DNA of 64,000 nt from Longimicrobiales bacterium. GTDB lineage: Bacteria; Gemmatimonadota; Gemmatimonadetes; Longimicrobiales; Gaopeijiaceae. The DNA is taken from positions 608,001 through 672,000 of the forward strand of contig CBDFIQ010000002.1 of assembly GCA_965248195.1 (NCBI GenBank), read 5' to 3'. Below are positions 27,018 to 43,542 of this stretch, piece by piece. A program made the translations under genes and the position numbers. Within the stretch, counting starts at the first letter, position 1, and every line of letters begins with the position of its first letter. Below the pieces are notes generated by a model. The model was not told the origin of the DNA, did not search any database, and saw only the letters and a program-made list of their open reading frames with translations.

Positions 27018-27046
27018 TTGACGCGACCAACCTCGAACGCTACGAT
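27018..27046 (+). promoter_or_regulatory. Sigma70 promoter of susC1
   Basis: TTGACG-17 bp-TACGAT; conserved in the second copy. Confidence 0.75.
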
Positions 27047-27049
27047 CAG

Positions 27050-27240
27050 CTTTGAGCCATCAGCTTCGATTGCGAGGTTTCTTGGAGAGCTCGTACTTCG
27101 AGGTTGGTATCGAGAAGCTCGGCCCCAGTGGGGTCGCGTGGTTTTGTCGCATATAGTGGTTTTGTCCTAATAGGCGATCGGCACGTTGGGGCCCACTCCC
27201 GGGCCCTGTGCGGTGTGTAGTTCAACCAAAAGGGGGAGCT
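27050..27240 (+). ncRNA. Candidate structured cis-regulatory 5' leader (copy 1)
   Basis: Four hairpins shared with copy 2; one compensatory pair; loop ACUCCC complementary to the SD. Confidence 0.55.
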
Positions 27241-30200
27241 ATGAAAACAGGATTCCGTTCCAGAGTACTGGGCGGGTTCGGTGCCTTGGTGATGGCTCTG
27301 TTAGTAGTAGCGCCGAGTATCGGCGCGCAGCAGGGCGGTACCGTCACTGGTCGGGTGCTGGATTCGCAGACCGGGGCGCCGTTAGCGGCAGTCCAGGTCT
27401 TTATCTCCGCACTGGACTTGGGCGGCCTGACGCAACAGAACGGCCGCTATCTACTGCAAAACGTGCCTGCGGGCACCCACACGCTGAGCGTGGCCCGCAT
27501 CGGGTACCGGACAGCAGAGGCACAGGTCTCGGTCGGTGGCGGTCAAACCGTCGAGCAGAATTTCGCCATCGCCGAAGAAGCCCTGGCGCTCGATGAGATC
27601 ATCGTCACCGGAACTCCGGGAGGTACGCAGAGGCGGGCCATCGGGAACGCCGTGACCCGGCTGGACGCGTCGGCTGTTACCGACCGGATGGCGATCACCG
27701 GCATACAGGACCTGCTGACCGCCCGAGCCCCCGGCCTCCAGTACAACAGGCTGAGCGGCAACGTCGGCACGGGCGGGGGGATTCGGATCCGTGGTGTCTC
27801 GAGCCTCGAGCTCGGGGCGCAACCCCTCATCTACGTGGACGGCATTCGGGTCAACAACTCGAATGCGATCGGGCCCGACATTGGCCGGGACCGGCAGAGC
27901 AGCGCCTTGAACGACTTCAGCCCCGACGAAATCGAGAGCATCGAGATCATCAAGGGACCGGCGGCGGCGACGCTGTACGGCACCGAGGCCTCGGCGGGTG
28001 TGATCCAGATCATCACGAAGAGGGGTGAGGTGGGCGCCCCCGTGTTCAACCTCTCGGTGCGGCAGGGAACCAATTTCATGGTGGACCCGGCCGGTAAGCT
28101 GGGCACCAGGTATGGATGCATCACGACGTTCGCCCCGCCCTGTCCTGCAGCGGACGTCGTCAGCTACAACCCTTACGACGAAGCGAACGCCTGGCGGGCA
28201 AGGGAAGGCCTACCTGGAGATCTCTACCAGAACGGTCTCTCCTCCAATTACAACCTCTCCGTGCGGGGCGGCACCGAGGCGGTTCGCTACTTCGTGTCGG
28301 CTGACTATACCGACGACAACGGGATCGTCGACTACAACTTCAAAGAGCAGACCAACGTGAGGGCCAACCTTAGCCTGATCCTGGCTCCGACCCTGAACGC
28401 TGACATCTCGACGGGCTTTGTCTCGGGCACGATCAGGTATGCCGCGCCGGTCATATCAGACGGTGGAACCTGGCAGGATATGCAGTGGGGTAACGGCTTC
28501 TGCCTGTTGAGCACTCAGCAGACCCGCTTCGACCGGGGGATCAATCCGGTAGGAGAATCGGTTCCCATGTTCCCGGACCCGAACTGCGGTCTCGCGGGCT
28601 TTCAGGAGCACCTCCCCACGGACGTCGAGGAGGTCAATGCCTTCCGATACTACGATCGCTTCACCGGGAGCGCCACGCTGACCCACACGATAGGTGACAA
28701 CTTCACCCAGCGCCTCGTAGGCGGGGTCGACAAGGGTTGGGACACCAACAGCTACTTCATCCCGCTGGATGAAGACGGGATTTACACGGAGAACGTGTTG
28801 GGTGAAGTGAGGTTGGGCACGCCCGAAACGACGGTCCTCTCCGTCGACTGGTCCGGTACCTACCGATACGACGTGAACGACAACTTCAGGGTCACGTCGT
28901 CGGTCGGAACACAGTACTACTCCAGACTTTTCGAACAACAAGAGGTGATCGGAAAGGGATTCGCCTCGCCTGAGCAGAAGACGGTCAACCAGACCGCGAG
29001 AGACCAGCTCGAGGTTACCTATCTATTTAGAGAGAACAAGTCGCTCGGCGTCTTCGTGCAGGAGGAGATCGGCTACCAGGACCGGATCTTCTTGACGGGG
29101 GCCGTCCGCGCGGACGACAACTCCGCGTTCGGCTCCGACTTCGATCTGATCTACTACCCCAAGTTGTCGGGTACGTGGGTCCTCTCGGAGGAGGAAATGT
29201 GGAACATCGACTTCATAAACTCGTTCCGGATTCGCGGCGCGTGGGGCAAGGCCGGGCGCCAGCCCGATGTGCTCGCCCGGGCGACCCTCTACGCAGCATT
29301 TCCGGGACCGGGGGGAGCCCCCGCGTTGAGGCCGAGCCGGCCCGGTAACACGGCGGTCGGTCCGGAACAGAGCACCGAGCTCGAGATTGGCGCCGACTTC
29401 GCACTCATGGACGACCGCGTCTCCGGCGAGTTCACCTGGTACAACCAAAAAACAACGGACGCGCTCCTGGATCTGGATCAGGTGCCGAGTTTTGGATTTC
29501 CGGGGGACTTTCAAGGGAACATCGGCCGGATCGACAACTGGGGCTGGGAAGCGATCCTGAACACGCGGATCGTACAGACGCAGGATGTCGGGTTCGACAT
29601 CACCTTTTCGGCGGACCACACCGATAACCTGATCGTCGACCTCGCCGGCGTCGATGCGGGTAACAATTCCCAAGTCGGGCATCCCTTCCCGAACGAAGTT
29701 GACCGCATCCTCCGCAGCGTGGCCGGTCTCGATCCGGTTACGCAGGAACCGATCGACGCGATGTGCGACCCGGGTATCCCCCGGGAGGGCACGAACCCGG
29801 CCACGGGCGAGGCGTGGGCGGACTCAAACGTCCAGGGGGGCGTGCCAGTCGCCTGCGGTGGTATAAGGAGTGCGCAGTTGCTGATCGGGCCGGCGTTTGC
29901 CACATACACGTTCAGCGTGGCGCCCACGCTTTCGCTGCTCGGCAACACTCTCCAGATCTTCGCTATGGCGGAGGGCCAGTACGGCAAGACTGGCGACGAG
30001 GGCGACGTGGAATGGGGGATCGACTACAACAACAGCCTGCAGTCCCAGTTGAGGACGGATCCCCTCTTCGTGGCCTCGGAATCCGCTTTCATCGGAGACG
30101 ACACGCAACACGCTCACTTCGACGCGTCCTTCTGGAAGCTGCGGGAGATCGGAGCCCGGTATCAACTGCCGCAGTCCTTGACCTCGACGTTGGGGGTGGA

Positions 30201-30420
30201 TCGAGCCTCCTTCTCGCTGTCGGGGCGGAATCTAGTGACGATTTGGCAAAGGCAGAAGAGACTCGGCGCCTTCGGAGATGACGAAGGCCTCGTAATTCCG
30301 GATCCCGAGCACGGGGGAACGCAGGACGACTCCGGCAACAACGCCGGCGGCGGTAATAACACGCTCTGGGGGCTACCCGGCATCGCGAGCGTGCATGCTA
30401 CGCTGCGGGTCACCTTCTGA
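27241..30420 (+). CDS. SusC/RagA family TonB-dependent outer-membrane transporter 1
   Basis: Signal peptide, carboxypeptidase-regulatory-like domain, LDEIIVTG, IEIIKGPAAATLYG plug, C-terminal LRVTF. Confidence 0.95.
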   Translation: MKTGFRSRVLGGFGALVMALLVVAPSIGAQQGGTVTGRVLDSQTGAPLAAVQVFISALDLGGLTQQNGRYLLQNVPAGTHTLSVARIGYRTAEAQVSVGGGQTVEQNFAIAEEALALDEIIVTGTPGGTQRRAIGNAVTRLDASAVTDRMAITGIQDLLTARAPGLQYNRLSGNVGTGGGIRIRGVSSLELGAQPLIYVDGIRVNNSNAIGPDIGRDRQSSALNDFSPDEIESIEIIKGPAAATLYGTEASAGVIQIITKRGEVGAPVFNLSVRQGTNFMVDPAGKLGTRYGCITTFAPPCPAADVVSYNPYDEANAWRAREGLPGDLYQNGLSSNYNLSVRGGTEAVRYFVSADYTDDNGIVDYNFKEQTNVRANLSLILAPTLNADISTGFVSGTIRYAAPVISDGGTWQDMQWGNGFCLLSTQQTRFDRGINPVGESVPMFPDPNCGLAGFQEHLPTDVEEVNAFRYYDRFTGSATLTHTIGDNFTQRLVGGVDKGWDTNSYFIPLDEDGIYTENVLGEVRLGTPETTVLSVDWSGTYRYDVNDNFRVTSSVGTQYYSRLFEQQEVIGKGFASPEQKTVNQTARDQLEVTYLFRENKSLGVFVQEEIGYQDRIFLTGAVRADDNSAFGSDFDLIYYPKLSGTWVLSEEEMWNIDFINSFRIRGAWGKAGRQPDVLARATLYAAFPGPGGAPALRPSRPGNTAVGPEQSTELEIGADFALMDDRVSGEFTWYNQKTTDALLDLDQVPSFGFPGDFQGNIGRIDNWGWEAILNTRIVQTQDVGFDITFSADHTDNLIVDLAGVDAGNNSQVGHPFPNEVDRILRSVAGLDPVTQEPIDAMCDPGIPREGTNPATGEAWADSNVQGGVPVACGGIRSAQLLIGPAFATYTFSVAPTLSLLGNTLQIFAMAEGQYGKTGDEGDVEWGIDYNNSLQSQLRTDPLFVASESAFIGDDTQHAHFDASFWKLREIGARYQLPQSLTSTLGVDRASFSLSGRNLVTIWQRQKRLGAFGDDEGLVIPDPEHGGTQDDSGNNAGGGNNTLWGLPGIASVHATLRVTF

Positions 30421-30557
30421 TCCCCGCGGCAAATCCGATCTGAGCGTTGAGAGAAACGGCCATAAGCGGCGGCGCGGGGCACGAAGAACCACCCGCGCCG
30501 CCGATCGGCCGCTCTCTCGACGAACCGACCATCGTATGTGAGAGAGGACGACATAAA

Positions 30558-32039
30558 ATGACGACACCACATAAGCTTAGGAGAGGGAGGACCGCTCTCG
30601 GACTCGCCTTCGCCTTTTTGTTCGGCGGCCTGATCGGCTGCGACAGCCTGTTGGAGGTGGACCTGCCCGACTCGGTCACCGATGCTGTGCTGCTGGATCC
30701 CAAAACGGCAGGGACTCAAGTGAACTCGGCTATGGGGCTGTTCGAGTGCGGGTTCTCGGACTTCACGTACGCCGAAGGGGGCTACTCGGACGCCTACATC
30801 GGGATCGCCGGTGTGGGCGGTAGTTATGCGCGTTACAATGAGCGTCCCCAGGACGGGGAGTGCGACACCGTCGTACAGAGCCGCAACTGGTACCAGCCCA
30901 TGCAGACCTCGCGCTCGATGGGGGAGAGCGTGTTCGCGCAGATGGACACGCTCTGGACGGACGCCGAGGTCGAGAACAGGCAACAGCTGATGGCCACGGT
31001 CGCCATTTACATCGCAGCGGTCTACGGCCATTTCGGGGAGCACCTCTGTGAGACCGCTATCGACGCAGGTCCCTTGTTGACGCCGGACGCGACGCTCGCG
31101 ATCGCCGAGCAGTGGGTCGACACCGCGCTGAGCATCATTGGGAACATCGGTGACTTCGCAATATTCAACGGCATCTCGACCAGCGCGACGACCATGGCGT
31201 ATGGGATCCGAGCCCACGCCCGCTGGGCCCGGGGGCCCGCGCAGTGGGCTGGTGCCCAGTCCGACGCGGAGCGGATTGCGCAGGGCTTTACGGCCTGGGT
31301 GAGCCGGGAGCCCGGGGAGTTTCGCAGGAACAAGCCTTACTCCCACTATATCCCGGCCTTCGGCTGGCTGCAGGGCCCCGTCGACTGGTGGCCGCCCGGC
31401 ACCAACCCGGTGACGGGTCAGGTCTGGCCCCAGCCGATTCCCTTCACGGGCTATCTGGACCTGGGTATCATGACCGCCACCGGACGGGCCATCTCCGCTC
31501 CCCCGCAGTACCCCATCCTGAATACTGATGCCGGGGCCGAGATGGACACTCGGATCACGCACGTGGTCAAGGGGGTTCAAGGGGGACTGGACGGCCCTAC
31601 TCCGCTCAAGTATCTGTCGGAGGCCGACGATATCCCCTTCATCAGTTGGGAGGACATGTTCCTCATCCGGGCCGAGATCGAGCTTGGGAACGGGAACGGG
31701 GCCAACGCAATCTCCCTGGTCAACAACATACGGGCTGCCGAAGGGTTGCCGCTTGTGACCTACCTGACCGGCGCCAGCGCCGTCACTGACATCGAGGACA
31801 TGATCATCGAGGAGCGTCGCCGGCAACTCTTCATGGAAGGCCGGTTCTGGTCGACGAAGATCCAGCACCTCGACAAGCTCTGGTTCCCTCGTAACGTCGG
31901 CATCAACCCTGGCAGCTACTCCATGGACGGTGCCATTCGCCTCGCCATGCCGGAGGACGAGTACATCCTCAATGAGAACTTCGGCGAAGACGACGCCGGC
32001 ACCATCTGTGTTGTCAATCAACGGCCGACTATTGACTGA
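30558..32039 (+). CDS. SusD/RagB family lipoprotein 1
   Basis: LIGC lipobox; LIRAEI, EERRRQLFMEG. Confidence 0.9.
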   Translation: MTTPHKLRRGRTALGLAFAFLFGGLIGCDSLLEVDLPDSVTDAVLLDPKTAGTQVNSAMGLFECGFSDFTYAEGGYSDAYIGIAGVGGSYARYNERPQDGECDTVVQSRNWYQPMQTSRSMGESVFAQMDTLWTDAEVENRQQLMATVAIYIAAVYGHFGEHLCETAIDAGPLLTPDATLAIAEQWVDTALSIIGNIGDFAIFNGISTSATTMAYGIRAHARWARGPAQWAGAQSDAERIAQGFTAWVSREPGEFRRNKPYSHYIPAFGWLQGPVDWWPPGTNPVTGQVWPQPIPFTGYLDLGIMTATGRAISAPPQYPILNTDAGAEMDTRITHVVKGVQGGLDGPTPLKYLSEADDIPFISWEDMFLIRAEIELGNGNGANAISLVNNIRAAEGLPLVTYLTGASAVTDIEDMIIEERRRQLFMEGRFWSTKIQHLDKLWFPRNVGINPGSYSMDGAIRLAMPEDEYILNENFGEDDAGTICVVNQRPTID

Positions 32040-32246: not shown

Positions 32247-32990
32247 CTACCGGCCGCTGCCGGAACGCGTCGTCACCACTATGACGCCGTTCGCGGCGAG
32301 CGGATAGCGGAACGCAGCGGCAGGGCCCCGTAGGACCTGGATATCCAACACGTCCGAGGCGGGAATCCGGCTCAGGGCGTCGAGCGTCGATTCCCCCGTC
32401 GAGACCAAGGCACCATCGATGTAGACGAGCGGCTCAACACTCTGCGTGAGGCTGCCGATGCCCCGCACGTTGATCACGAAGTCATTCTTCCCGATGTTAC
32501 CGGATCTCCAGCTGCGCACGCTGGGGTTTTGTACGAGGAGCAGGTCTTCAGCCGTGCGGGGGTCGGATATTCTCGATCTGTCGCCGGGAACTCCGACCAG
32601 CAGCTCGGAGAGCACGGCGGAGACCGAAGGAAGACGGAACTGGAGAAAAACGATCCCATCGCCCGTGACGTCGACCTCCTGCGTGACGCTGGGGTGCCCT
32701 GGTGCCGTAACATGGACCGACATCATTCCGAAGTGTAGGTCGGGAAACGCGAAGTCACCGTACCTTCCGGTCTGGGTCTCGATGTCCGTGCCGAGCAGCG
32801 AGACCGTAGCCGATTCAATGGGCTGGCCGGTCGACTCGTAGACGACGACACCCTGGAGGAAAGGCTGCGTCCCGGCTCCCGACCGGGGTTGCTGTGCGGC
32901 GGCGGCGAGAGGTAGCGCGTGCTGGGTGACGAGGAGAACTACCAGAGCGGCCAGCGCTCCGGCCCAGGGTCGGATCGCTGGGCATGACAT
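32247..32990 (-). CDS. Carboxypeptidase-regulatory-like plus TonB plug domain protein, no beta-barrel
   Basis: Signal peptide; EPLVYIDG, IQVLRGPAAA, NGVIVVTT, then stop. Confidence 0.85.
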   Translation of the reverse strand: MSCPAIRPWAGALAALVVLLVTQHALPLAAAAQQPRSGAGTQPFLQGVVVYESTGQPIESATVSLLGTDIETQTGRYGDFAFPDLHFGMMSVHVTAPGHPSVTQEVDVTGDGIVFLQFRLPSVSAVLSELLVGVPGDRSRISDPRTAEDLLLVQNPSVRSWRSGNIGKNDFVINVRGIGSLTQSVEPLVYIDGALVSTGESTLDALSRIPASDVLDIQVLRGPAAAFRYPLAANGVIVVTTRSGSGR

Positions 32991-33107: not shown

Positions 33108-33136
33108 TTGACGCGACCGAGCTCGAACGTTAGCGT
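33108..33136 (+). promoter_or_regulatory. Sigma70 promoter of susC2
   Basis: TTGACG-17 bp-TAGCGT. Confidence 0.7.
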
Positions 33137-33139
33137 GAC

Positions 33140-33295
33140 TTTCGATTGCGAGGTTCCTTGAAGAATCTCGTACGCTCGAGGTTTGTCTCGAGAAGCGCGG
33201 CCCCTAGCGGGGTCGCGTCGTTTCGTTGTATATGGGCACGTTGCGGCCCACTCCCGGGCCGTGGTGCCGTGTGTAGTTCAACCAAAGGGGGAGCT
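33140..33295 (+). ncRNA. Candidate structured cis-regulatory 5' leader (copy 2)
   Basis: Homolog of 27050-27240 with the stems preserved. Confidence 0.55.
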
Positions 33296-36200
33296 ATGAA
33301 AACAGGATTCCGTTCCAGAGTACTGAGCGGGTTCGGCGCCCTGGTGACGGCCTTCTTGCTTGTAGTGCCGAGTATCGGCGCGCAGCAGGGCGGTACAGTC
33401 ACCGGTCGGGTGCTGGACTCGCGGAGCGGGTTGCCTGTGGCGGCAGCCCAGGTCTTTATCTCCGCATTGGACTTGGGCGGCCTGACGCAACAGAACGGCC
33501 GCTATCTAATGCAAAACGTGCCCGCGGGCACCCACACGGTGACCGTGGCCCGCATCGGGTACCGGACGGAAGAGGCACAGGTCTCGGTCGGTGGCGGTCA
33601 AACCGTCGAGCAGAATTTCGACATGGCCGAGGAAGCTCTGGCGCTCGACGAGATCATCGTCACCGGGACGCCGGGCGGTACGCAGCGTCGGGCCATCGGA
33701 AACTCTGTCGTGACGGTCAACGCATCCGACATTGTCGCGGTGGCGCCTGTATCAAACATGCAGGAGTTGCTGTCTGGACGAACTCCGGGCCTCCAGTTCA
33801 CACGGCGGACCGGAAACGTGGGCTCCGGCTCGCCGATCCGGATCCGGGGCATCGGGAGCTTCTCCCTGTCCACCAACCCCCTTATCTACATCGACGGCAT
33901 ACGGGTCAACAACTCCTCCAACGCCGGGCCTGCAGTCGAAGACGGAGGTTTCGAGGAACAGAGCGCGGAAGGGGGTACAACGAGCGTGCTCGACGACTTG
34001 AACCCGGACGACATCGAGAGCATCGAGATCATCAAGGGGCCGGCGGCGGGGACGCTCTACGGAACAGAAGCGTCGGCCGGTGTGATCCAGATCATCACCA
34101 AGAGGGGCGCAGAGGGCGACGTACAGATCAGCGCGTCTGTGCGTGCGGGCGTCAACTTTATGACCGACCCCGCCGGAAGGCTGGGCACCATGTATGGATG
34201 TCGGTCTGGCACATCGACGCCCTGCCCCGTGGGAGACATAATCACGTACAACATGTACGAGGAGGCGAACGATTACATCAGCGGGAGGACTCCGGGCCCG
34301 GACGGTGGGAGGTACTTCGATTGGCCCACCAAAAATCTCTACCAGTACGGCCCTATCCAATCCTACAACGTGGACGTTAGGGGAGGAAGCCAGACGTTCC
34401 GCTACTTCGCCTCTGCCAACTACGACAATGAAGAGGGGATCGAGTGGTACAACAGGGACGAGACGGCGCGGTTGCGGGCGAACCTGAGTATTACGCCCGG
34501 GGGGGATTGGTCCATGGACCTCTCGACCGCCTTTGTTCAGGGAGACACGAGGTATGCTTCGCCCGTCCTCAACCAGGGTAGCCCGTGGCAGGACATGGGT
34601 TGGTCTAACGGTCGCTGCCTGTTTCGTATCAACCCGGGCCTGTGCCCTCGTCTCGGCGGTTTCCAGGAGCACCTCCCTTCGGACATAGCCAAGATAAACA
34701 CCACACGGGACTACAGTCGCTTTACTGGAGGCCTGACACTGAACCACAATACCGGTGACTGGTTGAGCCAGCGCCTCATTCTCGGGATCGACAAGGGATG
34801 GGACGTAAACCAGGTGCTCTTCCCGGTAGAAAACATTCTGACCACGGTTTATTCCGAAACCAACAAAGGGCAGATCCAACGCGAAGATCCGACCACGACG
34901 AACATTTCGCTGGACTACGCTGTTACCGGCACGTACGACTACAATAGCTTGAACTTCCAGACCTCCGTCGGGGGTCAGTACTACATCAAGCGGTTCGAAA
35001 AGCTCAACGCCATTGGGCGAAATTTCGCCTCGGCGCTGTCCACCACCGTCAACCAGACCGATGTCGCGCAGGCGACTCTCGACTTCATATTCATCGAGAC
35101 TCGGTCGTTGGGCTTCTACGTGCAGGAGCAGATAGGATGGAATGAGCGCCTATTCGTGACCGGCGCGATCCGCTTCGACGACCATTCGGCGTTTGGCGCT
35201 GACTTCGAAGCGCTCGTATATCCGAAGGTGTCGGCGACTTGGGTGGCCTCGGAGGAAAGTTTCTGGAACATCGACTACATCAACTCGTTGCGCTTGCGGG
35301 GAGCGTGGGGGCAGGCGGGGCGCCAGCCGGACGTCTTCGCCGCGACAGACGTCTACGGAGTGATCCCCGGGGTGGGCGGTTTCTCAGGGATCTCGCCAGT
35401 GAGCCCGGGTAACGAGTTGATCGGTCCCGAGGTGAGCACCGAGATCGAGTTGGGCTTCGACATGGCCCTGATGGACGGGCGGCTCGCGGCCGAATTCACC
35501 TACTTCACGCAAAAGAACGAGGATGCTCTGCTGGAACGGGAAGTCGCGCCGAACTCGGGATTCCCGGGTGCGGTCCAGCAGAATGTGGGCCGGATCGACA
35601 ACTGGGGATGGGAGGCATTGCTGAGTGCACAGGTTTACCAGGCTGACTCCTGGTCCTTCGACCTGCGTCTCAACGCCGATCACGTGGACAACAAGGTCAA
35701 GGATCTCGGTGGCACCCTGCCGACCACCGAGATTCGGGAAGGGTGGCCATACCCGGTCTTCACGGGCCGGTACTTAGTCGAGTCTGCGGATCCGGGGACG
35801 GGCCCGGGGACATTCAGCAACGCCATGTGCGATAGTGGAACGGGCGGCGCGCCCGGGGAGGCACAGTTCCAGGGAGGCGCGCTGGTGCCCTGTGGGACTG
35901 TCTCTGGCAGTACGCGAATCATGATCGGGCGGGCTTTCTACACATACAAGTATGGCATCGCCCCGAGCCTGAACCTGTTCAACAACCGCCTTCAGCTCTT
36001 CGCCCTGGCCGAGGGCGCCTACGGCCGGGAAGGCGTAGACAACGTTCTGGAGTGGAGCCACATCTACAACAATTCCCTTCTCTCCCAGGCCGAGGACGAC
36101 CCGCTCTATGTGGCCAGGGATCAAGGCAACTTCCAGGACGACCGCTCGAAGGAATATTTCGATGGAGACTTCTGGACGATGCGGGAGTTGGGATTCCGGT

Positions 36201-36424
36201 TTACCCTCCCGCAGTCCTGGGTCGGTGCTATGGGGGCGGACCGTGCGAGCTTCTCGTTCTCTGCTCGGAACACCTTTTTCCTTTATCGGGCCCAAACCAC
36301 GGTCGCCGGAGGGACAGTTGGGGATCCGGAGATCGGCTCCGTCGAAGAGCTTGACGGCGGCAGCAACTTCCGCTCAAGCCCACCCACTGCGAGCATAAGC
36401 GCGACCCTGCGGGTCTCGTTCTGA
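33296..36424 (+). CDS. SusC/RagA family TonB-dependent outer-membrane transporter 2
   Basis: Same architecture as 27241-30420; C-terminal LRVSF. Confidence 0.95.
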   Translation: MKTGFRSRVLSGFGALVTAFLLVVPSIGAQQGGTVTGRVLDSRSGLPVAAAQVFISALDLGGLTQQNGRYLMQNVPAGTHTVTVARIGYRTEEAQVSVGGGQTVEQNFDMAEEALALDEIIVTGTPGGTQRRAIGNSVVTVNASDIVAVAPVSNMQELLSGRTPGLQFTRRTGNVGSGSPIRIRGIGSFSLSTNPLIYIDGIRVNNSSNAGPAVEDGGFEEQSAEGGTTSVLDDLNPDDIESIEIIKGPAAGTLYGTEASAGVIQIITKRGAEGDVQISASVRAGVNFMTDPAGRLGTMYGCRSGTSTPCPVGDIITYNMYEEANDYISGRTPGPDGGRYFDWPTKNLYQYGPIQSYNVDVRGGSQTFRYFASANYDNEEGIEWYNRDETARLRANLSITPGGDWSMDLSTAFVQGDTRYASPVLNQGSPWQDMGWSNGRCLFRINPGLCPRLGGFQEHLPSDIAKINTTRDYSRFTGGLTLNHNTGDWLSQRLILGIDKGWDVNQVLFPVENILTTVYSETNKGQIQREDPTTTNISLDYAVTGTYDYNSLNFQTSVGGQYYIKRFEKLNAIGRNFASALSTTVNQTDVAQATLDFIFIETRSLGFYVQEQIGWNERLFVTGAIRFDDHSAFGADFEALVYPKVSATWVASEESFWNIDYINSLRLRGAWGQAGRQPDVFAATDVYGVIPGVGGFSGISPVSPGNELIGPEVSTEIELGFDMALMDGRLAAEFTYFTQKNEDALLEREVAPNSGFPGAVQQNVGRIDNWGWEALLSAQVYQADSWSFDLRLNADHVDNKVKDLGGTLPTTEIREGWPYPVFTGRYLVESADPGTGPGTFSNAMCDSGTGGAPGEAQFQGGALVPCGTVSGSTRIMIGRAFYTYKYGIAPSLNLFNNRLQLFALAEGAYGREGVDNVLEWSHIYNNSLLSQAEDDPLYVARDQGNFQDDRSKEYFDGDFWTMRELGFRFTLPQSWVGAMGADRASFSFSARNTFFLYRAQTTVAGGTVGDPEIGSVEELDGGSNFRSSPPTASISATLRVSF

Positions 36425-36489
36425 TGGTGGGTCGACCGACGGACTTGACTACTCACTTGACTACTCAGAGATACGGAATGGTGAACGAT

Positions 36490-38064
36490 ATGAGCAAAAC
36501 GAGAATGAAACCGGAAAGCCGGGCATGGGTGAAGGAGGGAAAGTCTGCTCTGATCCTCGCCCTGGCGGTAGGCACGCTGACTGCCTGCAACAGCTTGTTG
36601 GACGTGACGCTGCCGGCGGTCGTTAATGAGGAGGTGCTGGAGGACCCCCTGAACGCCGACGTAATCGTGGCCTCGATCATCGCGAACTTCGAGTGCGGCT
36701 ATTCAGCGTTCGGTTGGCTGTCGATGGGTCACGACGGCGTCACGGAGTCGGTCGCAGGCCGGGGCGGTGGCAGTGGGACCTACAACTCGGTTCCCGACGC
36801 CGGCGTGGAGTGCGACGCAGGTGGGGATTCCTCGAACGGCAACTACTACGATCAGTTCGCGATCGCGAGGGGGGCGGGGTACGTTGCGTATGAGAGCCTT
36901 GGGGGTTGGACGGACGCGGAGGTGCCTGGTGGGGCAGTCAATAGGGAGAAGCTGATGGCCACCACTGCCCTTTACCTTGGGGCGATTTTCGACTACTTCG
37001 GCGAGTTCTACTGCGAGATGACCATCGACGAAGGTCCGCTCATGACGCCGGACCAGACTATTGCGCTGGGCATAACCTGGCTCGACAGGGCGCAGGGGCA
37101 TATCAACAACATCGGCGACTACGCGATCCCCCACGGTGCCAGCACCAGCGCCCAGAGCATGTTGCATGGCCTTCGCGCCCGGATGCTCTGGCATACAGGG
37201 GACCTTGTCGGCGCTGCGGCGGCTGCGGCGTCGTTCCCAAAGGATTTCACGGCCTGGGTGACCCGCGACGTGGGTCCCCAGCGGAGAAACAAGCCGTACG
37301 AGTCCCTCACGGCCACCGGCTGGAATGGGATGCTGGGATTGAGCGCCTCCACCGGCGACTTCGCCTGGAATCCTCCCGATGGCCGTACCAACCCTGTGAC
37401 GGGCCTGGATTGGCCAGACCCCATTCCGTTCACCGGCTACCTCTTCCTGGGCATCATGCCCGACGGTCGGGCGCTCTCTGACACGGGAATCGCAGTCAGG
37501 TGGGCGGAGGAGTTCCGGGTAGCCGGCGACGATCCGACCCCGCTAAACAACGGTGCGGTAGCGGATACCCGGGTCCTGCACTTCAAGAAGTCGATCCAGG
37601 GCCCCTCGCCCAGAGAGGTTCCGGACACGTATAAATCGGATTCCGACGACCTCCCCTTGGTGGACTGGGAGGAGATTTGGCTCATCCAGGCCGAGATCGA
37701 GGGAGGTCAACGCGCCATCGACCGCGTGAACGATATTCGGGCCGCCTACAGCCTCCCGCTGGTCACTTACGTGGATCCGGGCAATGCACAACAGGTGAAG
37801 TTCATGATTATCGAGGAAAGGCGGCGAACCTTGTTCAACGAAGTGGGGCGGTTCTGGGCCACGAAGATCTTGAACACCGACCTTCTATTTTTCCCCCGGA
37901 CCAAGGGGGCCACTCCGGAACAGGGATACAACCTGAATGGTGGTGTGCGTCTGGTAATGCCTACCGACGAGTACGAGCTGAACCCAAACCTCGGCTTTAA
38001 CGTCCGGGGGACCGGTTGTGACCCCGATCAGAGACCGATCGAGGACGAGGGTTGGGGGTTCTAG
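36490..38064 (+). CDS. SusD/RagB family lipoprotein 2
   Basis: LTAC lipobox; LIQAEI, EERRRTLF. Start uncertain (36424-36505). Confidence 0.9.
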   Translation: MSKTRMKPESRAWVKEGKSALILALAVGTLTACNSLLDVTLPAVVNEEVLEDPLNADVIVASIIANFECGYSAFGWLSMGHDGVTESVAGRGGGSGTYNSVPDAGVECDAGGDSSNGNYYDQFAIARGAGYVAYESLGGWTDAEVPGGAVNREKLMATTALYLGAIFDYFGEFYCEMTIDEGPLMTPDQTIALGITWLDRAQGHINNIGDYAIPHGASTSAQSMLHGLRARMLWHTGDLVGAAAAAASFPKDFTAWVTRDVGPQRRNKPYESLTATGWNGMLGLSASTGDFAWNPPDGRTNPVTGLDWPDPIPFTGYLFLGIMPDGRALSDTGIAVRWAEEFRVAGDDPTPLNNGAVADTRVLHFKKSIQGPSPREVPDTYKSDSDDLPLVDWEEIWLIQAEIEGGQRAIDRVNDIRAAYSLPLVTYVDPGNAQQVKFMIIEERRRTLFNEVGRFWATKILNTDLLFFPRTKGATPEQGYNLNGGVRLVMPTDEYELNPNLGFNVRGTGCDPDQRPIEDEGWGF

Positions 38065-38134: not shown

Positions 38135-38175
38135 AGCCGAGCCCGGGGAGAAATCCCCGGGCTCGGCTTAATTTT
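38135..38175 (+). terminator. Intrinsic terminator after susD2
   Basis: agccgagcccgggga...tccccgggctcggct stem plus a T-rich tail; homologous to 32102-32142. Confidence 0.8.
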
Positions 38176-38314
38176 GTGGGTACCGGCGCCGCACTGCATG
38201 GGCGACGCGCATACGAGCGAGAAGCGCCGTCGGGGGCGATGGGCGCAGGAACTATTCGGGGGACGCCTGAGTTCATTTACAAATCACTGCTTCCGCCGCT
38301 ACTGTTTCCGCCGC

Positions 38315-39490
38315 ATGAACCAGAAAATGCTTCTTTCCGACCGGATGCCGGATCCGCCCTCTGGGGCCTTCTCCTTTCTCTCCTTCGGCCTTGCTCTGGC
38401 TACGCTGGCCGTATCGGCATGCTCGGGTGGGGACCTGCCGATGGTGGGTCCGGATGATGAGCCGGCCTTGACCGCGCTGTGCCAAGAAATTCAGGCGGAC
38501 CTGGTCGGAGCTGCGGCGAAGGATGCGATTCCCGCACTTACGGACCCTGAGCTGGTCGCGGTGGACGATCTCAGGGCCGAATTCCTACTGCCGACGGACC
38601 GAGTGATCGGGATCGAGGTCGATGGCCAGTACATCGCCATCCCACACAACATTCTCTGGTGGCACGAGATCGCGAACTTCAACGCATACGAGTTGGCCGT
38701 CACGTATTGCCCGCTTACCGGGTCCAGCATGGTCTTTCAGCGCGGGTCGGTCGATGGAGACGAGTTCGGTGTATCTGGGCTGCTCTTCAACAACAATCTG
38801 GTGATGTACAACCGCACCCCTGTTGGGGTGGAGGAAACTCTGTGGCCGCAGATGTTGGCGGGAGGGCGTTGCGGCCCGGCGTCAGGTACGGAGCTGGCGA
38901 TGTCTCCGTCCCTGGAGATCGAATGGGCCGACTGGGTGGCGCTCCACCCGGACACACGTGTCGTTGGGGGGGACACCGGATTTCCGCGGGATTATCGACT
39001 GTATCCTTATGGGGGCTACGAAGTAGAGACCAACAGCATCACACTGATCCCCCAAGATGACTTGGATCGCCGGAGACCCCCGAAGGAGCGGGTGTTGGGG
39101 ATTCCGTTCGGTGATGGAGGAGGGATCGCCTTCCCCTTCGGGGCCCTCCGCAGCGTCGGCGATCTTGCGGCGATCCATACGATCCTCGGCGACGGCCAGG
39201 AGGAAGCCGGCGGTATAGACCCCGTCGTCGTGTTCTGGAGTAGCGCTGCGGCTGCCGCCATGGCATTTACCCCTTCGATCGCAGGCAAGGATCTGACCTT
39301 CGAGGTAAGAAACGGCGCTTTCGTGGATGTAGAAACGGGGAGCCAGTGGAGTCTCGATGGCAAGGCGCTCTCCGGTCCGTTGGCGGGCGAGAGCCTCTGG
39401 AAGATTCGCGACGCCTACGTGTCGTTCTGGTTCGCCTTCGCGACGTTCTTCCCCGACCCCGTTCTCTGGACTCCAGCTACCTCGTCGTGA
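38315..39490 (+). CDS. DUF3179 domain lipoprotein (paralog 1)
   Basis: VSAC lipobox; KDAIPAL, WHEI, TYCPLT, FGVSGLL, FWFAF. Confidence 0.88.
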   Translation: MNQKMLLSDRMPDPPSGAFSFLSFGLALATLAVSACSGGDLPMVGPDDEPALTALCQEIQADLVGAAAKDAIPALTDPELVAVDDLRAEFLLPTDRVIGIEVDGQYIAIPHNILWWHEIANFNAYELAVTYCPLTGSSMVFQRGSVDGDEFGVSGLLFNNNLVMYNRTPVGVEETLWPQMLAGGRCGPASGTELAMSPSLEIEWADWVALHPDTRVVGGDTGFPRDYRLYPYGGYEVETNSITLIPQDDLDRRRPPKERVLGIPFGDGGGIAFPFGALRSVGDLAAIHTILGDGQEEAGGIDPVVVFWSSAAAAAMAFTPSIAGKDLTFEVRNGAFVDVETGSQWSLDGKALSGPLAGESLWKIRDAYVSFWFAFATFFPDPVLWTPATSS

Positions 39491-39540
39491 GCCCTCAGAC
39501 GGGCGCAGTGTTCGCGGATGCCGGTGTGGTCGCGCACACT

Positions 39541-39633
39541 CTACCGGCCGGCGCCCGAACGCGTCGTCACCAGCACGACGCCGTTCGCCGCGAAGGGATA
39601 GAGGAACGCAGCGGCAGGGCCCCGCAGGACCTC
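39541..39633 (-). pseudogene. 3' remnant of a plug-domain gene paralogous to 32247-32990
   Basis: EVLRGPAAAFLYPFAANGVVLVTTRSGAGR* versus QVLRGPAAAFRYPLAANGVIVVTTRSGSGR*. Confidence 0.85.
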
Positions 39634-40103
39634 GAATAGCGGGCTCTCTCGGCTCTTTTAGTTGCGCGGGGCGCCGTTGTTGATCCAGTTCCTGAAATTG
39701 GTGAGGTCGATGCTGTCGAGCAACGGGCCAAACGGCATCCGAGACCCTACTCTTTGGCGACCCTCAAACCGGATGATCAGGTAGCTGTTGGTCGCGTCGA
39801 AGGGCTCGACGAGCAGAAACTCGCGCTCGGTGTCTGCAGGCACGTTCACGATGTTGGCGTAATTTTCGCGAGAGTCGGGGTGGAGGAAGAGCGCCCCCTG
39901 TCCGTCCCCGTGACAGTTGGAGGCGGTACACCCTTTTCGCACGAAGATCTCTTGTACGTCCTCTTGAAACGAGGGAAGCTGTAATACGACGCGAGTCATC
40001 TCGGACTCAGGGTCGTCAAGGTCAGGGTCAGGACGTGGACCGGTCGGAATCGGGTCTCCAAAGCACGATGTGAGGGCAGTCCCCGCGACAAGCAATGTAA
40101 AAA

Positions 40104-41479
40104 GGTCAAGTCCCGATTTGTGTGTAAAAGCGGAGGAAGCTCCTCGCCTTCGGCTAGGCTGCTTGGGCGACCTCCTGTTTCTGGAGGAGTGAGAGGTCGA
40201 GGTAACGCCGGTCGCCCCAGACGTGTGTGGTCCTGAGTGCGACGGCCGTGATGAGCCTGAGGGCGCTGGCCCGGTCCGGGAAGGCGCCGGCGGCCTTGAT
40301 CCTGCGTTTGATCTCGCCGTGCAGCCGCTCGAGGCTGTTGGTGGTACGCAGCCGGGGCCAGTGCGCCTCGGGGAACGCGTAGAACTGCGTCGCTGCCCCG
40401 AAGCCCCGCTCCAGGACCTCCACGGCCTCGGGCAGCTCCTTCTTCCAGCGTGCGCCGAACTCGCCCAGGAGCTTCTTCGCCTCGGCGAGTCCGGATGTCT
40501 GGAAGATCACCGAGACCTCACGCGCCACGCGCTTGCGTAGGCGGTGGGGGACCCTCGCCCCCACATTACGCTGCAGATGGACCGTACACCTCTGACGGCG
40601 TGCCTCGGGCAGGAAGCGGCGGACCGCAGCTGCCAGGCCTGCGTGCTCATCGGCGATCACGAGCTCGACACCGCCGAGGCCGCGGTCCTGGAGTTGCTCG
40701 AGGAGCTCCGACCAGCTCTGCTGCGACTCCTCAGCGCCCAGCGTGACGGCCAGGAGCCGTCGGTGACCCTCAGGGCCCACTGCATACGCCACGAGCGCAC
40801 TCACGTTCTCGACTTTGCGGGCCCAGCGGGCGTCCAAGAACGTGGCGTCCAGGTACAGATAGGGGTGAGGCCCCTCGATCGGCGCACGGCGCAGCCCTTC
40901 CACGGCCTCGTCGAGCCGTTTTGCCACACGACTCACCGTCGAGCGCCCAACACGCTCGCCCATCAGCGCCTCGGTGACGTCGCCCATCTTGCGCTGTGAC
41001 ACGCCGCTCACATACGCCTCGACCATCATCTCGTCGAGCTCGGGGCTCCTGCGCTGGTAGCGGCCGATCACGTCGGCCGGCGAACCGTTGTCCCGGCTCC
41101 GGGGCATGGCGACCTCGATCTGCCCCAGGCTCGTCAGCAGCCGCCTCAGGTATGTGCCGTTCCTATGGTCCTTCCGGCTTCCCACCCGCTCGAAGCGGCG
41201 TGCACCTACCATGGCCTTCAGCTCCTCTTCCAGCACCATCTCGAGCGTCAGCCGGATCGCGCCTTGAAACAGCTCGCGCAAATCATCGCGTAGCTCGTCT
41301 TGCGTGGCCCGACCGATCTCCACAATCTCTTGCATCGGAAGCTCCTCTCCGGTTCCGAGCCTGCTCTGCAGACCCGGACTCCCGGGTTCATGTGACAGTG
41401 AACAACAACAGAGGAGCTTCCGTTTTTCTTTCCCTCCTGTCCAGCTTATCCGCTTTTACACAAATCTAGGGACACTACC
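40104..41479 (-). mobile_element. IS256 family element with a 9-bp TSD (atgtaaaaa)
   Basis: TIRs ggtcaagtcccgatttgtgtgtaaaagcgga and (reverse complement) ggtagtgtccctagatttgtgtaaaagcgga; TSD at 40095-40103 and 41480-41488. Confidence 0.95.
40154..41335 (-). CDS. IS256 family transposase
   Basis: RNGTY, YLDAT, IADEH, QRCTVH, RTTNSLERL. Confidence 0.97.
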   Translation of the reverse strand: MQEIVEIGRATQDELRDDLRELFQGAIRLTLEMVLEEELKAMVGARRFERVGSRKDHRNGTYLRRLLTSLGQIEVAMPRSRDNGSPADVIGRYQRRSPELDEMMVEAYVSGVSQRKMGDVTEALMGERVGRSTVSRVAKRLDEAVEGLRRAPIEGPHPYLYLDATFLDARWARKVENVSALVAYAVGPEGHRRLLAVTLGAEESQQSWSELLEQLQDRGLGGVELVIADEHAGLAAAVRRFLPEARRQRCTVHLQRNVGARVPHRLRKRVAREVSVIFQTSGLAEAKKLLGEFGARWKKELPEAVEVLERGFGAATQFYAFPEAHWPRLRTTNSLERLHGEIKRRIKAAGAFPDRASALRLITAVALRTTHVWGDRRYLDLSLLQKQEVAQAA

Positions 41480-41639
41480 ATGTAAAAATCCGAACACGAT
41501 TGATCATTCTAGGCTCCTCAGCGCCGCCCGCGGGAGTCGGACAGGTCGCAGGGCCGGTGTTCTACACTCGATCCAGGAGGGGAGTGCCAGGCTGGGTCGC
41601 CCATCGCCAGCCGGCCCCACGGCGCCCCAAAGTGCCCGA

Positions 41640-41717
41640 AACCATTGGCATAAGCACTACGACGTGCAGGTGCTCTACGGGCTGAGCGGGACGTGCGTCA
41701 TCGTCTACCGCGCGGGC
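41640..41717 (+). pseudogene. Internal fragment of a cupin gene paralogous to 43174-43542
   Basis: NHWHKHYDVQVLYGLSGTCVIVYRAG versus TNWHKHDDVQVLYGLSGTCVVVDREG. Confidence 0.85.
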
Positions 41718-41750
41718 GCATTTCGGAGTTGTTTCAGGCTTTTCGGAGTC

Positions 41751-42905
41751 TCATGGAAGCCACAGAACGGGATCCGGGTAGAATTGCGAGAACGCGAACC
41801 AGAACGACACATAGGCCTCGGCAATCTTGTCAAGGCTCTCACCCACAAACGGGCCGGAGAGCGCCTCCCCCGCAATGCTCCACTGACTCCCCGTCTCTAG
41901 ATCCACGAAGGCGCCGTCCCTTACCTCGAAGGTCAGTGCCTGGCCGGCGATCGTAGTCCCATACGCCATCGCCGCAGCCGCTTCGTTATCCCAGAACACG
42001 ATGATCGGCAGGCTGATGGCGCTGGCCTCATCGGCGCTGCCAGCGGTCGCGTGGATCGCCGCGAGGTCGCCGACGCTGCGGAGGGCGCCGAAGGGGAAGG
42101 CGATCCCGCCCCCATCCTTATACGGGATTCCTAGCACCCGCTCCTTCGGAGGTCTCCGATCATCGAACTCATCGAGGGGGGCTAGCGTGGCTATGTTGTC
42201 CTCCACTTCATAGTCCCCATACGGATAGAGTGTGTAGGCCCTCCCGCCCCGCCCCAACCCGGTTTCGCCGCTCACGACCCGGGAGTCCGGATGGAGCTCC
42301 ACCCAGTCGGCCCACTCGATCTCCAGAGACGGGTACATCTTCAGGCGATCACGCTCCGAGGGGCCGCAGTGCCCTACTGCCAGCATCTGGGGCCACAGGG
42401 TCTCCTCTATGTCCGGACCCGCGCGGTCGTACATCACCAGATTGTTCTTGAAGAGAAACCCAGATACGCCGAATTCGTCACCGTCTATGTTCTGGCGATG
42501 AAAGACCATGCTGGACCCGGTGAAGGGGCAGTAGGTGATCGCCAGGCCGAGCTCGTTCATATTCACGATCTCATGCCACCAGAGGACGTTATGCGGAAAG
42601 GCCAAGTACTCGCCGTCGATTTCGATCCCGATCACACGGTCGGTGGGGAGCAGGTAGTCGGTATCCCTATGATCCGGCGAGACAAAATTAGGGTTCGAAA
42701 GCGCAGGAATTGCGTCCCTCGGAAGCACCGAGGTGAGATCCATCTGAAGTTCTTCGCACAGCGCGGTGAGCGCGGCCTCTTCTCCTCCACCACCACCCCC
42801 GCCCCCAGACGGTCGCACCGCATCTGAGCACGCCGCTACGGCCACCGTGGCCAAAGCCATGCGGGAGCAGAGGAAGGAAACTCTCTCGGACCTTTTTTCC
42901 CCCAT
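41751..42905 (-). CDS. DUF3179 domain lipoprotein (paralog 2)
   Basis: VAAC lipobox; RDAIPAL, TYCPFT, FWFAF; start reassigned. Confidence 0.88.
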   Translation of the reverse strand: MGEKRSERVSFLCSRMALATVAVAACSDAVRPSGGGGGGGGEEAALTALCEELQMDLTSVLPRDAIPALSNPNFVSPDHRDTDYLLPTDRVIGIEIDGEYLAFPHNVLWWHEIVNMNELGLAITYCPFTGSSMVFHRQNIDGDEFGVSGFLFKNNLVMYDRAGPDIEETLWPQMLAVGHCGPSERDRLKMYPSLEIEWADWVELHPDSRVVSGETGLGRGGRAYTLYPYGDYEVEDNIATLAPLDEFDDRRPPKERVLGIPYKDGGGIAFPFGALRSVGDLAAIHATAGSADEASAISLPIIVFWDNEAAAAMAYGTTIAGQALTFEVRDGAFVDLETGSQWSIAGEALSGPFVGESLDKIAEAYVSFWFAFSQFYPDPVLWLP

Positions 42906-43173
42906 GTTTCGACCCCACTCAGCTGCCCAGACGACACGCTCCTTCAAGCCCTTCGCGCGGCGCGCGAATGCAGGAAGCGTCAATCTGTTGCCGAACCCAT
43001 ACCCCGCCCGAACAGTTCCCCCGCGCAACCAAACCCGTGCTGGCAGGTGATCTGGAGCCGGGTTCCCTTGCAGTTCCCGACACGACCCGACATCGTCGCG
43101 GTGCGCGGGGCCGCTGCCGTGTGGCTCCGTGACGCTCGAGCGGTCTACCTCTTCCCCTACACGACGACCGAAA

Positions 43174-43542
43174 ATGAGAGCCATTGACCACGCCAGCCTG
43201 CCCCACGGCGCCGCAGACGAGGACCACTTCGTACGCCCCGCCCTGATGCAGCCCCTACTTGGCCGCGCCGACGGGCTGCCGGTACGGGTGTACCGCGTCA
43301 CCTTTGGTGAGGGTGGCCGGACCAACTGGCACAAACACGACGACGTTCAGGTGCTCTACGGGCTGAGCGGTACCTGCGTCGTTGTCGACCGCGAGGGCAA
43401 CGAGCTTCGGCTCCACACGGGGGACGTGGTCGTGATCGACCCGGACGAAGAGCACTGGCACGGTGCGGCCCCGGGAAAGGCGGGCGAACACCTCGCGATC
43501 AACGCGGGGGAGGAAACGACTTGGCTGGAGTCCTCGGCTTAG
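43174..43542 (+). CDS. Cupin domain protein
   Basis: RTNWHKH...Q, GDVVVI, EEHWHGA. Confidence 0.9.
   Translation: MRAIDHASLPHGAADEDHFVRPALMQPLLGRADGLPVRVYRVTFGEGGRTNWHKHDDVQVLYGLSGTCVVVDREGNELRLHTGDVVVIDPDEEHWHGAAPGKAGEHLAINAGEETTWLESSA

Follow-up and report, generated by a model that had tools for sequence, protein, structure and literature searches.

The two tandem susC genes of the window (i.e., the whole stretch of 64,000 nucleotides under analysis) are preceded by leaders that appear, from comparison with their homologues, to be shortened versions of a 5' leader RNA that is conserved in one susC subfamily, and this leader is confined to a single genus (Longimicrobiales-like, Gemmatimonadota) among the genomes searched. 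That the leader is a structured RNA maintained by selection is very probable. As for what the structure does, the reading favoured here, albeit tentatively, is that of a two-layer cis-regulatory switch, in which a predicted attenuator in the upstream part would be followed by a predicted masking of the ribosome-binding site (RBS) in the downstream part.

In the window, a susD-like gene follows each of the two susC genes (copies A and B), and the genes, promoter-like sites and predicted leader elements are the following:

27018 to 27046, + strand: promoter-like site of copy A (-35 TTGACG, 17 nt, -10 TACGAT)
27072 to 27094, + strand: hairpin H1 of copy A (hairpin 1 of the initial annotation), anti-antiterminator-like by prediction and exclusive with the rod
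27077 to 27118, + strand: long rod HL of copy A, which replaces H1 and H2, antiterminator-like by prediction and the RNAalifold consensus
27112 to 27155, + strand: H3 of copy A with its extension and U-rich tail (H3 core 27117-27139; GAGAA pairs with the UUUU after H3)
27138 to 27166, + strand: tandem duplication of an 11-mer found in copy A only, source of the 24-nt insertion
27181 to 27211, + strand: hairpin H4 of copy A (outer stem GCAC/GUGC, inner stem, loop ACUCCC at 27195-27200)
27217 to 27242, + strand: hairpin H5 of copy A (GUAGUUC/GAGCUAU pairing; local fold -11.4 kcal/mol)
27241 to 30420, + strand: susC copy A, SusC/RagA TonB-linked outer-membrane protein of 1059 aa (TIGR04056 above cut-off)
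30447 to 32039, + strand: susD-like partner of copy A (PF07980 match)
33108 to 33136, + strand: promoter-like site of copy B (TTGACG, 17 nt, TAGCGT), which a consensus promoter scan did not call
33148 to 33171, + strand: hairpin H1 of copy B
33153 to 33196, + strand: long rod HL of copy B, with one C-A mismatch
33189 to 33233, + strand: H3 of copy B with its extension and tail (H3 core 33195-33218; CGAGA/UUUCG extension; tail UUGUAUAU)
33235 to 33268, + strand: hairpin H4 of copy B (loop ACUCCC at 33250-33255)
33273 to 33297, + strand: hairpin H5 of copy B, over the end of the Shine-Dalgarno (SD) sequence and the start codon (local fold -10.1 kcal/mol)
33296 to 36424, + strand: susC copy B, 1042 aa (TIGR04056 above cut-off)
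36424 to 38064, + strand: probable susD-like partner of copy B, by its position; no family match

Transcription is predicted to start near 27053 in copy A and near 33143 in copy B. The initial annotation was right in that both susC genes share a promoter (TTGACG-17 nt-TAnnnT), that the same four inverted repeats lie in each leader, and that the loop ACUCCC and the motif GGGAG (27234-27238 and 33289-33293) are present in both copies. The larger indels (14 and 24 nt) do fall outside the stems, as it had said, although 1-nt indels are found inside hairpins 1 and 3. Its set of four hairpins was incomplete, as the fifth, H5, over the SD end and the start codon, had been overlooked; in copy A, H5 would mask the SD at its 3' end together with the first two bases (AU) of the start codon. 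Both leaders are more stable than dinucleotide shuffles (z -3.47 for A and -3.61 for B). Elsewhere in the window, positions 32247-32990 (- strand) encode a protein of 240-255 aa that has, of a TonB-dependent receptor, only the carboxypeptidase-regulatory domain and the plug, without a barrel, and which is also present at L196:5719-6483, L196:11690-12448 and L197:6760-7482 and stands head-on after susCD pairs in three genomes. Just past the second susCD pair (38174-43334), a Mutator-family transposase lies between two DUF3179 genes.

The upstream regions of A and B can be aligned from about 30 nt 5' of the TTGACG site through the start codon, with 138 of the 159 aligned leader columns identical. 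Identity at four-fold sites is 50/57 in codons 1-100 and near 55% in the remaining gene, and that of the SusC proteins is 86% in residues 1-100 and 36-68% farther on. The likeness of the leaders is not above the neutral level, and promoter, leader and N-terminus seem to have been copied recently as one unit; the hairpins shared by A and B carry no weight, since joint recent copying predicts the same under neutral descent. The leader identity equals the silent-site identity of the copied 5' ends, and the proposal that two paralogues show covariation is not supported. The compensatory swap reported in H4 (G27189-C27206 in A, C33244-G33261 in B) does exist, but the pair is open in 5/10 homologues with an intact hairpin, and the better-supported pair of H4 is the fourth, which occurs as G-C, A-U and G-U across homologues. 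As for the genes themselves, codons 1-100 (27241-27540 against 33296-33595) are far closer between the paralogues than the remaining gene, and a fourth paralogue (G000:C1:1422864) has the same N-terminal domain with a different signal peptide and leader; to judge by the N-terminal likeness of the paralogues, 5' cassettes may have been exchanged among susC genes.

DNA and protein searches of related genomes yielded 12 leaders of the susC subfamily (including a frameshifted third copy in the window's genome), which is marked by its signal peptide and, in the related genomes searched, was not found outside the window's genus. A metagenome scan used the start codon and the first coding bases as its anchor and took no account of leader sequence 5' of the SD; its 13 matches (13/13) are all true members of the subfamily. 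After the removal of L054 and L059 (duplicates of L050 and L008), 23 distinct leaders were kept; L052 (broken gene) was excluded from the trees, the frameshifted L015 was used with its first 68 codons only, and L055 was excluded from the seven-row column counts. A covariance model of the leader matched 3/150 genomes of a family sample and 2/150 of a class sample, all from the window's genus and with its own genome counted. In a genus sample, 7/12 genomes were matched at E<=0.5, and all 9 matches with E<=1.1e-4 precede genes of the subfamily (3 weaker matches lie outside this tally). Under the strict filters of the genome-sample scans, only 19-26 candidates per genome were scored in samples of more than 40 genomes, so weak matches may be missed. 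When 185,579 species genomes were scanned for the motif, there were 77 matches, two of which are the susC leader (in a Longimicrobiales and a Gemmatimonadota bacterium), the other 75 being rejected as chance-like. The idea of a general susCD regulon is not supported by these searches: no other susC-like gene of the window's genome matches the leader model, and a comparable anti-SD loop is found in 1/54 other susC leaders. Such hairpins also occur in 2/400 genes of the window's genome, so the anti-SD loop is not general, and chance could produce it.

About 200 nt ahead of the start codon, a sister group of susC genes (L026, L027, L029, L030) shows a conserved promoter of a different sequence (TTGCAC-17-TACGCT) and a structured leader, in which a C-rich loop lies some 37 nt ahead of the SD, a distance similar to that in the present family. 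It was rejected as a leader homologue, its leader being unalignable and the 4-nt test being passed by 1/3 dereplicated members. Three other susC paralogues of the window's genome (G000:C1:1235566, C1:1246499 and C2:2225218) have in common a different signal peptide and a portion of another leader.

Regarding the make-up of the family, TTGACG with the 17-nt spacing is found in 16/16 leaders that include the promoter region (TAnnnT in 15), the remaining 7/23 having lost this region to contig ends or rearrangement. A 5' domain some 100 nt long, by prediction a three-way junction, is present in 9/23 leaders; the rod, which makes up the middle module together with H3 and the tail, in 9/23; and an intact H4 in 10/23, with 5' domain, middle module and H4 all present in 3/23. 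The 5' domain was not found in copy A or copy B, and a model of it matched 1/150 genomes and not the window's genome. Deletions are frequent among the homologues, and the state of H4 has changed at least 4 times on the tree. The 5' domain (L049:1690-1797 on the - strand, L005:1340-1446, L053:1352-1457, and also in L058, L007, L056 and L060) features an invariant AAA-N3-4-GUUUGC hairpin and a UACU bulge, has no Rfam match, and would be the best aptamer candidate in the leader family. The third copy of the window's genome, L015 (G000:C1:294705, - strand), with its frameshift near codon 71, keeps the last 60 nt of the leader, promoter and most of the leader having been replaced, and one mismatch breaks its H4 stem. 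In L196 (G006:C7:1822000-1842000), three tandem susCD pairs of the subfamily have short and degenerate leaders, one of which retains a 4-bp stem and a loop UCCCCC still matching its SD.

The homologues span 2.7-3.9 substitutions per silent site. In the seven leaders in which the middle module is complete and H4 present, 37/62 stem columns are invariant, against 11/40 four-fold sites (Fisher p 0.001), and so are 2/26 loop or internal-loop columns; the H4 loop differs from these other loops in having 5/6 invariant columns (Fisher p 6e-4). Neutral simulations on the four-fold-site tree retain 58-70% of pairs (58% for the rod), and the cells kept paired amount to 132/141 in the rod HL (P 0 at the full rate and 0 at half rate), 72/78 in H1 (P 0 and 0.003), 45/54 in H2 (P 0.006 and 0.14) and 48/50 in the inner stem of H4 (P 0.001 and 0.04, in a set chosen by the motif). 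A nested model is 91% paired, with 7 pairs showing two-sided change against 2.5 in shuffles, counts that are inflated by relatedness and by the poorly aligned row L055, in a type of test where closely related rows can beat shuffles. G-U cells outnumber A-C cells (50 vs 13; variant types, 13 vs 8), which points to an RNA of the window's forward (susC) strand. A DNA palindrome or operator is disfavoured by the same bias, even if single elements may still fit. Because stems are conserved while loops vary, with the exception of the H4 loop, a selected structured RNA is indicated, and the initial annotation's conserved, structured, cis-acting RNA is borne out by homologues rather than by its two paralogues, in structures that are predictions on 23 related sequences of one genus.

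Which are the structures so conserved? The four hairpins are not supported as the conserved fold: over hairpins 1 and 2, the RNAalifold consensus of nine homologues is one long rod, 3-4 pairs of which show two-sided change, hairpins 1 and 2 show none against the commonest pair, and hairpin 2 is weakly kept (81% of cells paired). Alternatively, the 3' strand of the rod could form pairs with the sequence that follows H3, which extends H3 to the U-rich tail. By prediction, H1, the rod HL and the extended H3 are mutually exclusive and share their strands in the way of an anti-antiterminator, an antiterminator and a terminator. The predicted ensemble is dominated by H1 in 3/9 leaders (A, B and L003) and by the rod in 5/9. 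The two states lie within about 1.5 kcal/mol of each other in A, B, L003 and L060, and the rod state is 5-7 kcal/mol lower in L004, L049 and L056 (constrained folds). In GC-rich RNA, near-equal alternative folds are common.

The extended H3 is the chosen fold in 6/7 full leaders, one pair of the extension has changed from C-G to U-A (in L060), and the extension helix is weakly better than shuffles (39/500). Tail scores of at least 3.5, a value reached by 12/300 control windows, are found in 5/7 full leaders, and without the extension the scores are 2.1-2.5 in 6/7; the H3 tail of copy A is terminator-like but weak (2.73), and that of copy B is terminator-like with a score of 3.59. Invariance of the tail (6/13) is not clearly above neutral, and the attenuator features of the seven full leaders count as one ancestral event, not seven. 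In L013 and L055, H1 is lost, the rod is locked, and H3 and tail have decayed jointly. After stop codons, U-tailed hairpins show no genome-wide excess (12/300 vs 11/300 mid-gene), and the lineage may therefore make little use of intrinsic termination.

In the upstream layer of the proposed switch, formation of H1 would leave the GAGAA strand free, H3 would be extended to the U-rich tail and transcription would pause or stop; formation of the rod would hold the GAGAA strand, and the polymerase would read through. In the read-through RNA, the SD region would be closed by the H4 loop in homologues with the loop GCUCCC (6 pairs) and, in the window copies, which combine the weaker ACUCCC loop with the strongest H5, by H5.

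The alternative that best survives, rather unlikely as we judge it, is a constitutive structured leader, whose stems would protect a long-lived outer-membrane-protein mRNA and fix its translation level, with nothing switched and with the alternative folds as side effects of repeated short motifs. This would suit the stem that starts at most about 6 nt from where transcription is predicted to begin, both in leaders that have the 5' domain and in copy B, the independent loss of modules in many lineages, and the lack of a regulator or ligand clue, the neighbouring genes varying by locus. It does not account for the 5' strand of H1 (G-N-GAG), which is unpaired when the rod forms and yet conserved, with 4/5 positions invariant in nine leaders against 9/36 four-fold sites (p 0.016), nor for the H4 loop, conserved unlike other loops, of which a protective stem has no need.

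Turning to the downstream module, GGGAG ends 2 nt before the AUG, and it is AAAGGGGG, ending 4 nt before the AUG, that pairs best with the 3' end of the genome's 16S rRNA; GGGAG thus merely overlaps the SD, and its final AG is presumably not forced by the ribosome. The complementarity proposed between the loop CUCCC and the SD stands for GGGAG and, by this overlap, for only part of the SD itself. Likewise, the loop described as invariant is so where the hairpin is intact (the same 5-mer in 10/10; 0/4000 neutral simulations, and 0.002 at half rate, in a set chosen by the motif), but that is the case in just 10/23 leaders. A helix between the loop and GGGAG is selected by RNAalifold and possible in 10/10 intact hairpins, at a loop-to-GGGAG distance of 32-40 nt throughout. 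Five of its pairs never vary, whereas the sixth occurs as G-C in 5 leaders and as A-U in 2 and is open in the other 3, the two window copies (A-C) included; with five invariant pairs and one variable, the helix is compatible with the data, not proven by covariation. GGGAG is kept in 10/10 leaders with an intact H4 against 7/13 without it (p 0.017), in rows that are not independent and represent about 4 events.

Energies set H5 (-11.4 kcal/mol in A, -10.1 in B) against a rough pseudoknot estimate of +1.0 to -2.3, an advantage of about 8-12 kcal/mol in this rough model, by which H5 probably outcompetes the loop-SD pseudoknot in both window copies; in three of five G-loop leaders the two energies are comparable. 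An open RBS state was not found among the downstream folds, the H4-loop and H5 states both closing the RBS. The mean unpaired probability of the RBS region (-12..+3) stays at 0.36-0.43 across 4 to 60 C in nested folds of A and B. This constancy of the predicted pairing speaks against the temperature control considered initially, and an RNA thermometer was rejected, as the RBS hairpin does not melt in the growth range in those folds.

According to the initial annotation's model, the pseudoknot between the H4 loop and the SD would be the sole switch, acting on translation only, with a protein, an ion or a ligand to stabilise it and the upstream stems as a scaffold. It draws on the invariant 5-mer, on the helix and distance just described, on the two A-U versions of the sixth pair and on the rarity of comparable hairpins (just 2/400 own-genome genes), and is nevertheless improbable: invariance of five of the six pairs means no covariation and the sixth is A-C in the window copies, H5 is favoured over the estimated pseudoknot there, the intact hairpin is missing from 13/23 leaders, and the exclusivity of H1, rod and H3 is left unexplained. 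Of the translational switch proposed earlier, the conserved structured RNA and the conserved loop are retained in the two-layer reading, which adds a transcription layer and H5 and makes heat an unlikely trigger.

There is also a small chance that the full-length leader represents a new riboswitch class, with the 5' three-way junction or the H4 pseudoknot binding a nutrient imported by SusCD. If true, this would mean tandem transcriptional and translational platforms, paralogues retuned by deletion of whole modules, and window copies that are sensor-less derivatives. A riboswitch with an aptamer in all copies was rejected, the aptamer-like 5' domain being present in 9/23 leaders and in none of the window copies.

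Could the H4 loop be instead a binding site for a protein or a small RNA, or act in trans on other mRNAs, its local SD match being incidental? Invariance without covariation would suit such a sequence-specific site, and single-stranded anti-SD motifs act in trans in AbcR1, according to PMC4152367; nonetheless, GGGAG tends to be retained where the loop is, H4 comes after the terminator-like site and so would be absent from the truncated RNA, and Hfq was not found in the window's genome, which leaves this reading a slim chance. Coupling to a leader frame, whereby an upstream frame from a UUG after the SD-like GAGG in H1 would melt the structures and open the susC start, is very improbable: several leaders have a UUG frame with GAGG 4 nt before it, and the frames of L004, L049, L056 and L060 end at the same UAG in the 5' arm of H5, but the peptide is not conserved, H4 is read in all three frames, the upstream frame coincides with that of susC in B and meets an early stop in A, and the UUG is already explained by rod pairing. 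A leader-peptide attenuator was likewise rejected, the upstream frames differing in frame, length and sequence. Neutral inheritance of an ordinary GC-rich spacer copied with the 5' end of the gene accounts fully for the match between A and B and fits the frequent deletions, but is largely refuted, and scarcely credible, in view of the contrasts between stems, loops and silent sites and of the neutral simulations over 2.7-3.9 substitutions per silent site.

As for what would set the two-layer switch, Hfq, CsrA, a BglG-type RNA-binding domain (CAT_RBD) and a second NusG were sought and none was found in the window's genome (91.8% complete); an ANTAR search matched nowhere and carries no information; and the neighbouring genes, which differ between loci, give no consistent clue to a common substrate. 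The trigger is probably either a protein or the time course of folding; heat is improbable, as is a small molecule in the window copies. Contigs from RNA libraries of relatives extend from the leader into the coding region, which fits a leader, though they may derive from DNA; being assembled, and from RNA runs with shares all under 0.2, they do not allow ends, strand, level or habitat to be read off. In the literature, no paper on this leader or on RNA-level control of Gemmatimonadota susCD was found, although motif tables in supplements could hold it; Gemmatimonadota are described as having many susCD importers (PMC10469786). At 150-270 nt, the leader is an RNA that can be synthesized and probed, with natural module-lacking variants as ready controls, and a ligand or protein, if found, would hint at the cargo of the SusCD importers; its weight is limited by its restriction to one genus in the genomes searched and by the frequent loss of modules.

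Regarding known systems, Rfam 15 gave 0 matches in the window at the gathering threshold, in agreement with the earlier statement that the leader is absent from Rfam, and E-value searches of 14 loci and three short leaders gave 3 matches at chance level, which lay outside the motif or on its antisense strand. SAM-II and cobalamin kissing-loop riboswitches are of the SD/anti-SD pseudoknot types, and ompA-type leaders offer a further comparison for the susC leader. To the former types also belongs preQ1-I, a translational riboswitch with an H-type pseudoknot whose S2 pairs the SD with an anti-SD (PMC7641330). The susC leader resembles these riboswitches in its hairpin loop, complementary to an SD region that lies 32-40 nt farther 3', and in the A-rich stretch before the SD, and differs from them in its unrelated genes, its 6-nt loop, its competing local hairpin and the absence of an Rfam match or of a conserved ligand pocket among the features found. 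Membership in preQ1-I was rejected, there being no Rfam match and the downstream genes being susC/susD, not queuosine-related.

Anti-SD loops are also known from small RNAs, namely the cuckoo RNAs, with 2-4 adjacent hairpins each carrying the loop CCUCCUCCC (PMC4615179), and AbcR1, which also controls nutrient uptake genes (PMC4152367). With them the leader has in common a C/U-rich anti-SD motif shown single-stranded, unlike them it presents one RCUCCC loop in an mRNA leader, not in a free small RNA, and in another phylum; it was rejected as a cuckoo family member, having a single RCUCCC hairpin, variable other loops and no CCUCCUCCC array. In Bacteroides, susC genes have DonS-type cis-antisense RNAs (PMC7366714), with which RNA-level control at susC 5' ends would be shared, the present leader being a sense-strand structured RNA with G-U bias, not an antisense one.

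Close parallels are the protein-controlled transcription attenuators of B. subtilis, i.e., the rplJL leader, with its anti-antiterminator, antiterminator and terminator (PMC4538822), and the infC leader (PMC1865079). In these, and by prediction in the susC leader, three exclusive helices follow in series within 150-270 nt, the last one then followed by a U-rich tail; the differences are the genes (ribosomal proteins there, susCD here), the predicted weakness of the terminator and the lack of a binding protein found here, and the second, RBS-masking module that the susC leader adds. The leader belongs to none of the families tested, and its mode of action would most plausibly, though by no means surely, be like that of a known attenuator joined to an RBS-masking element.
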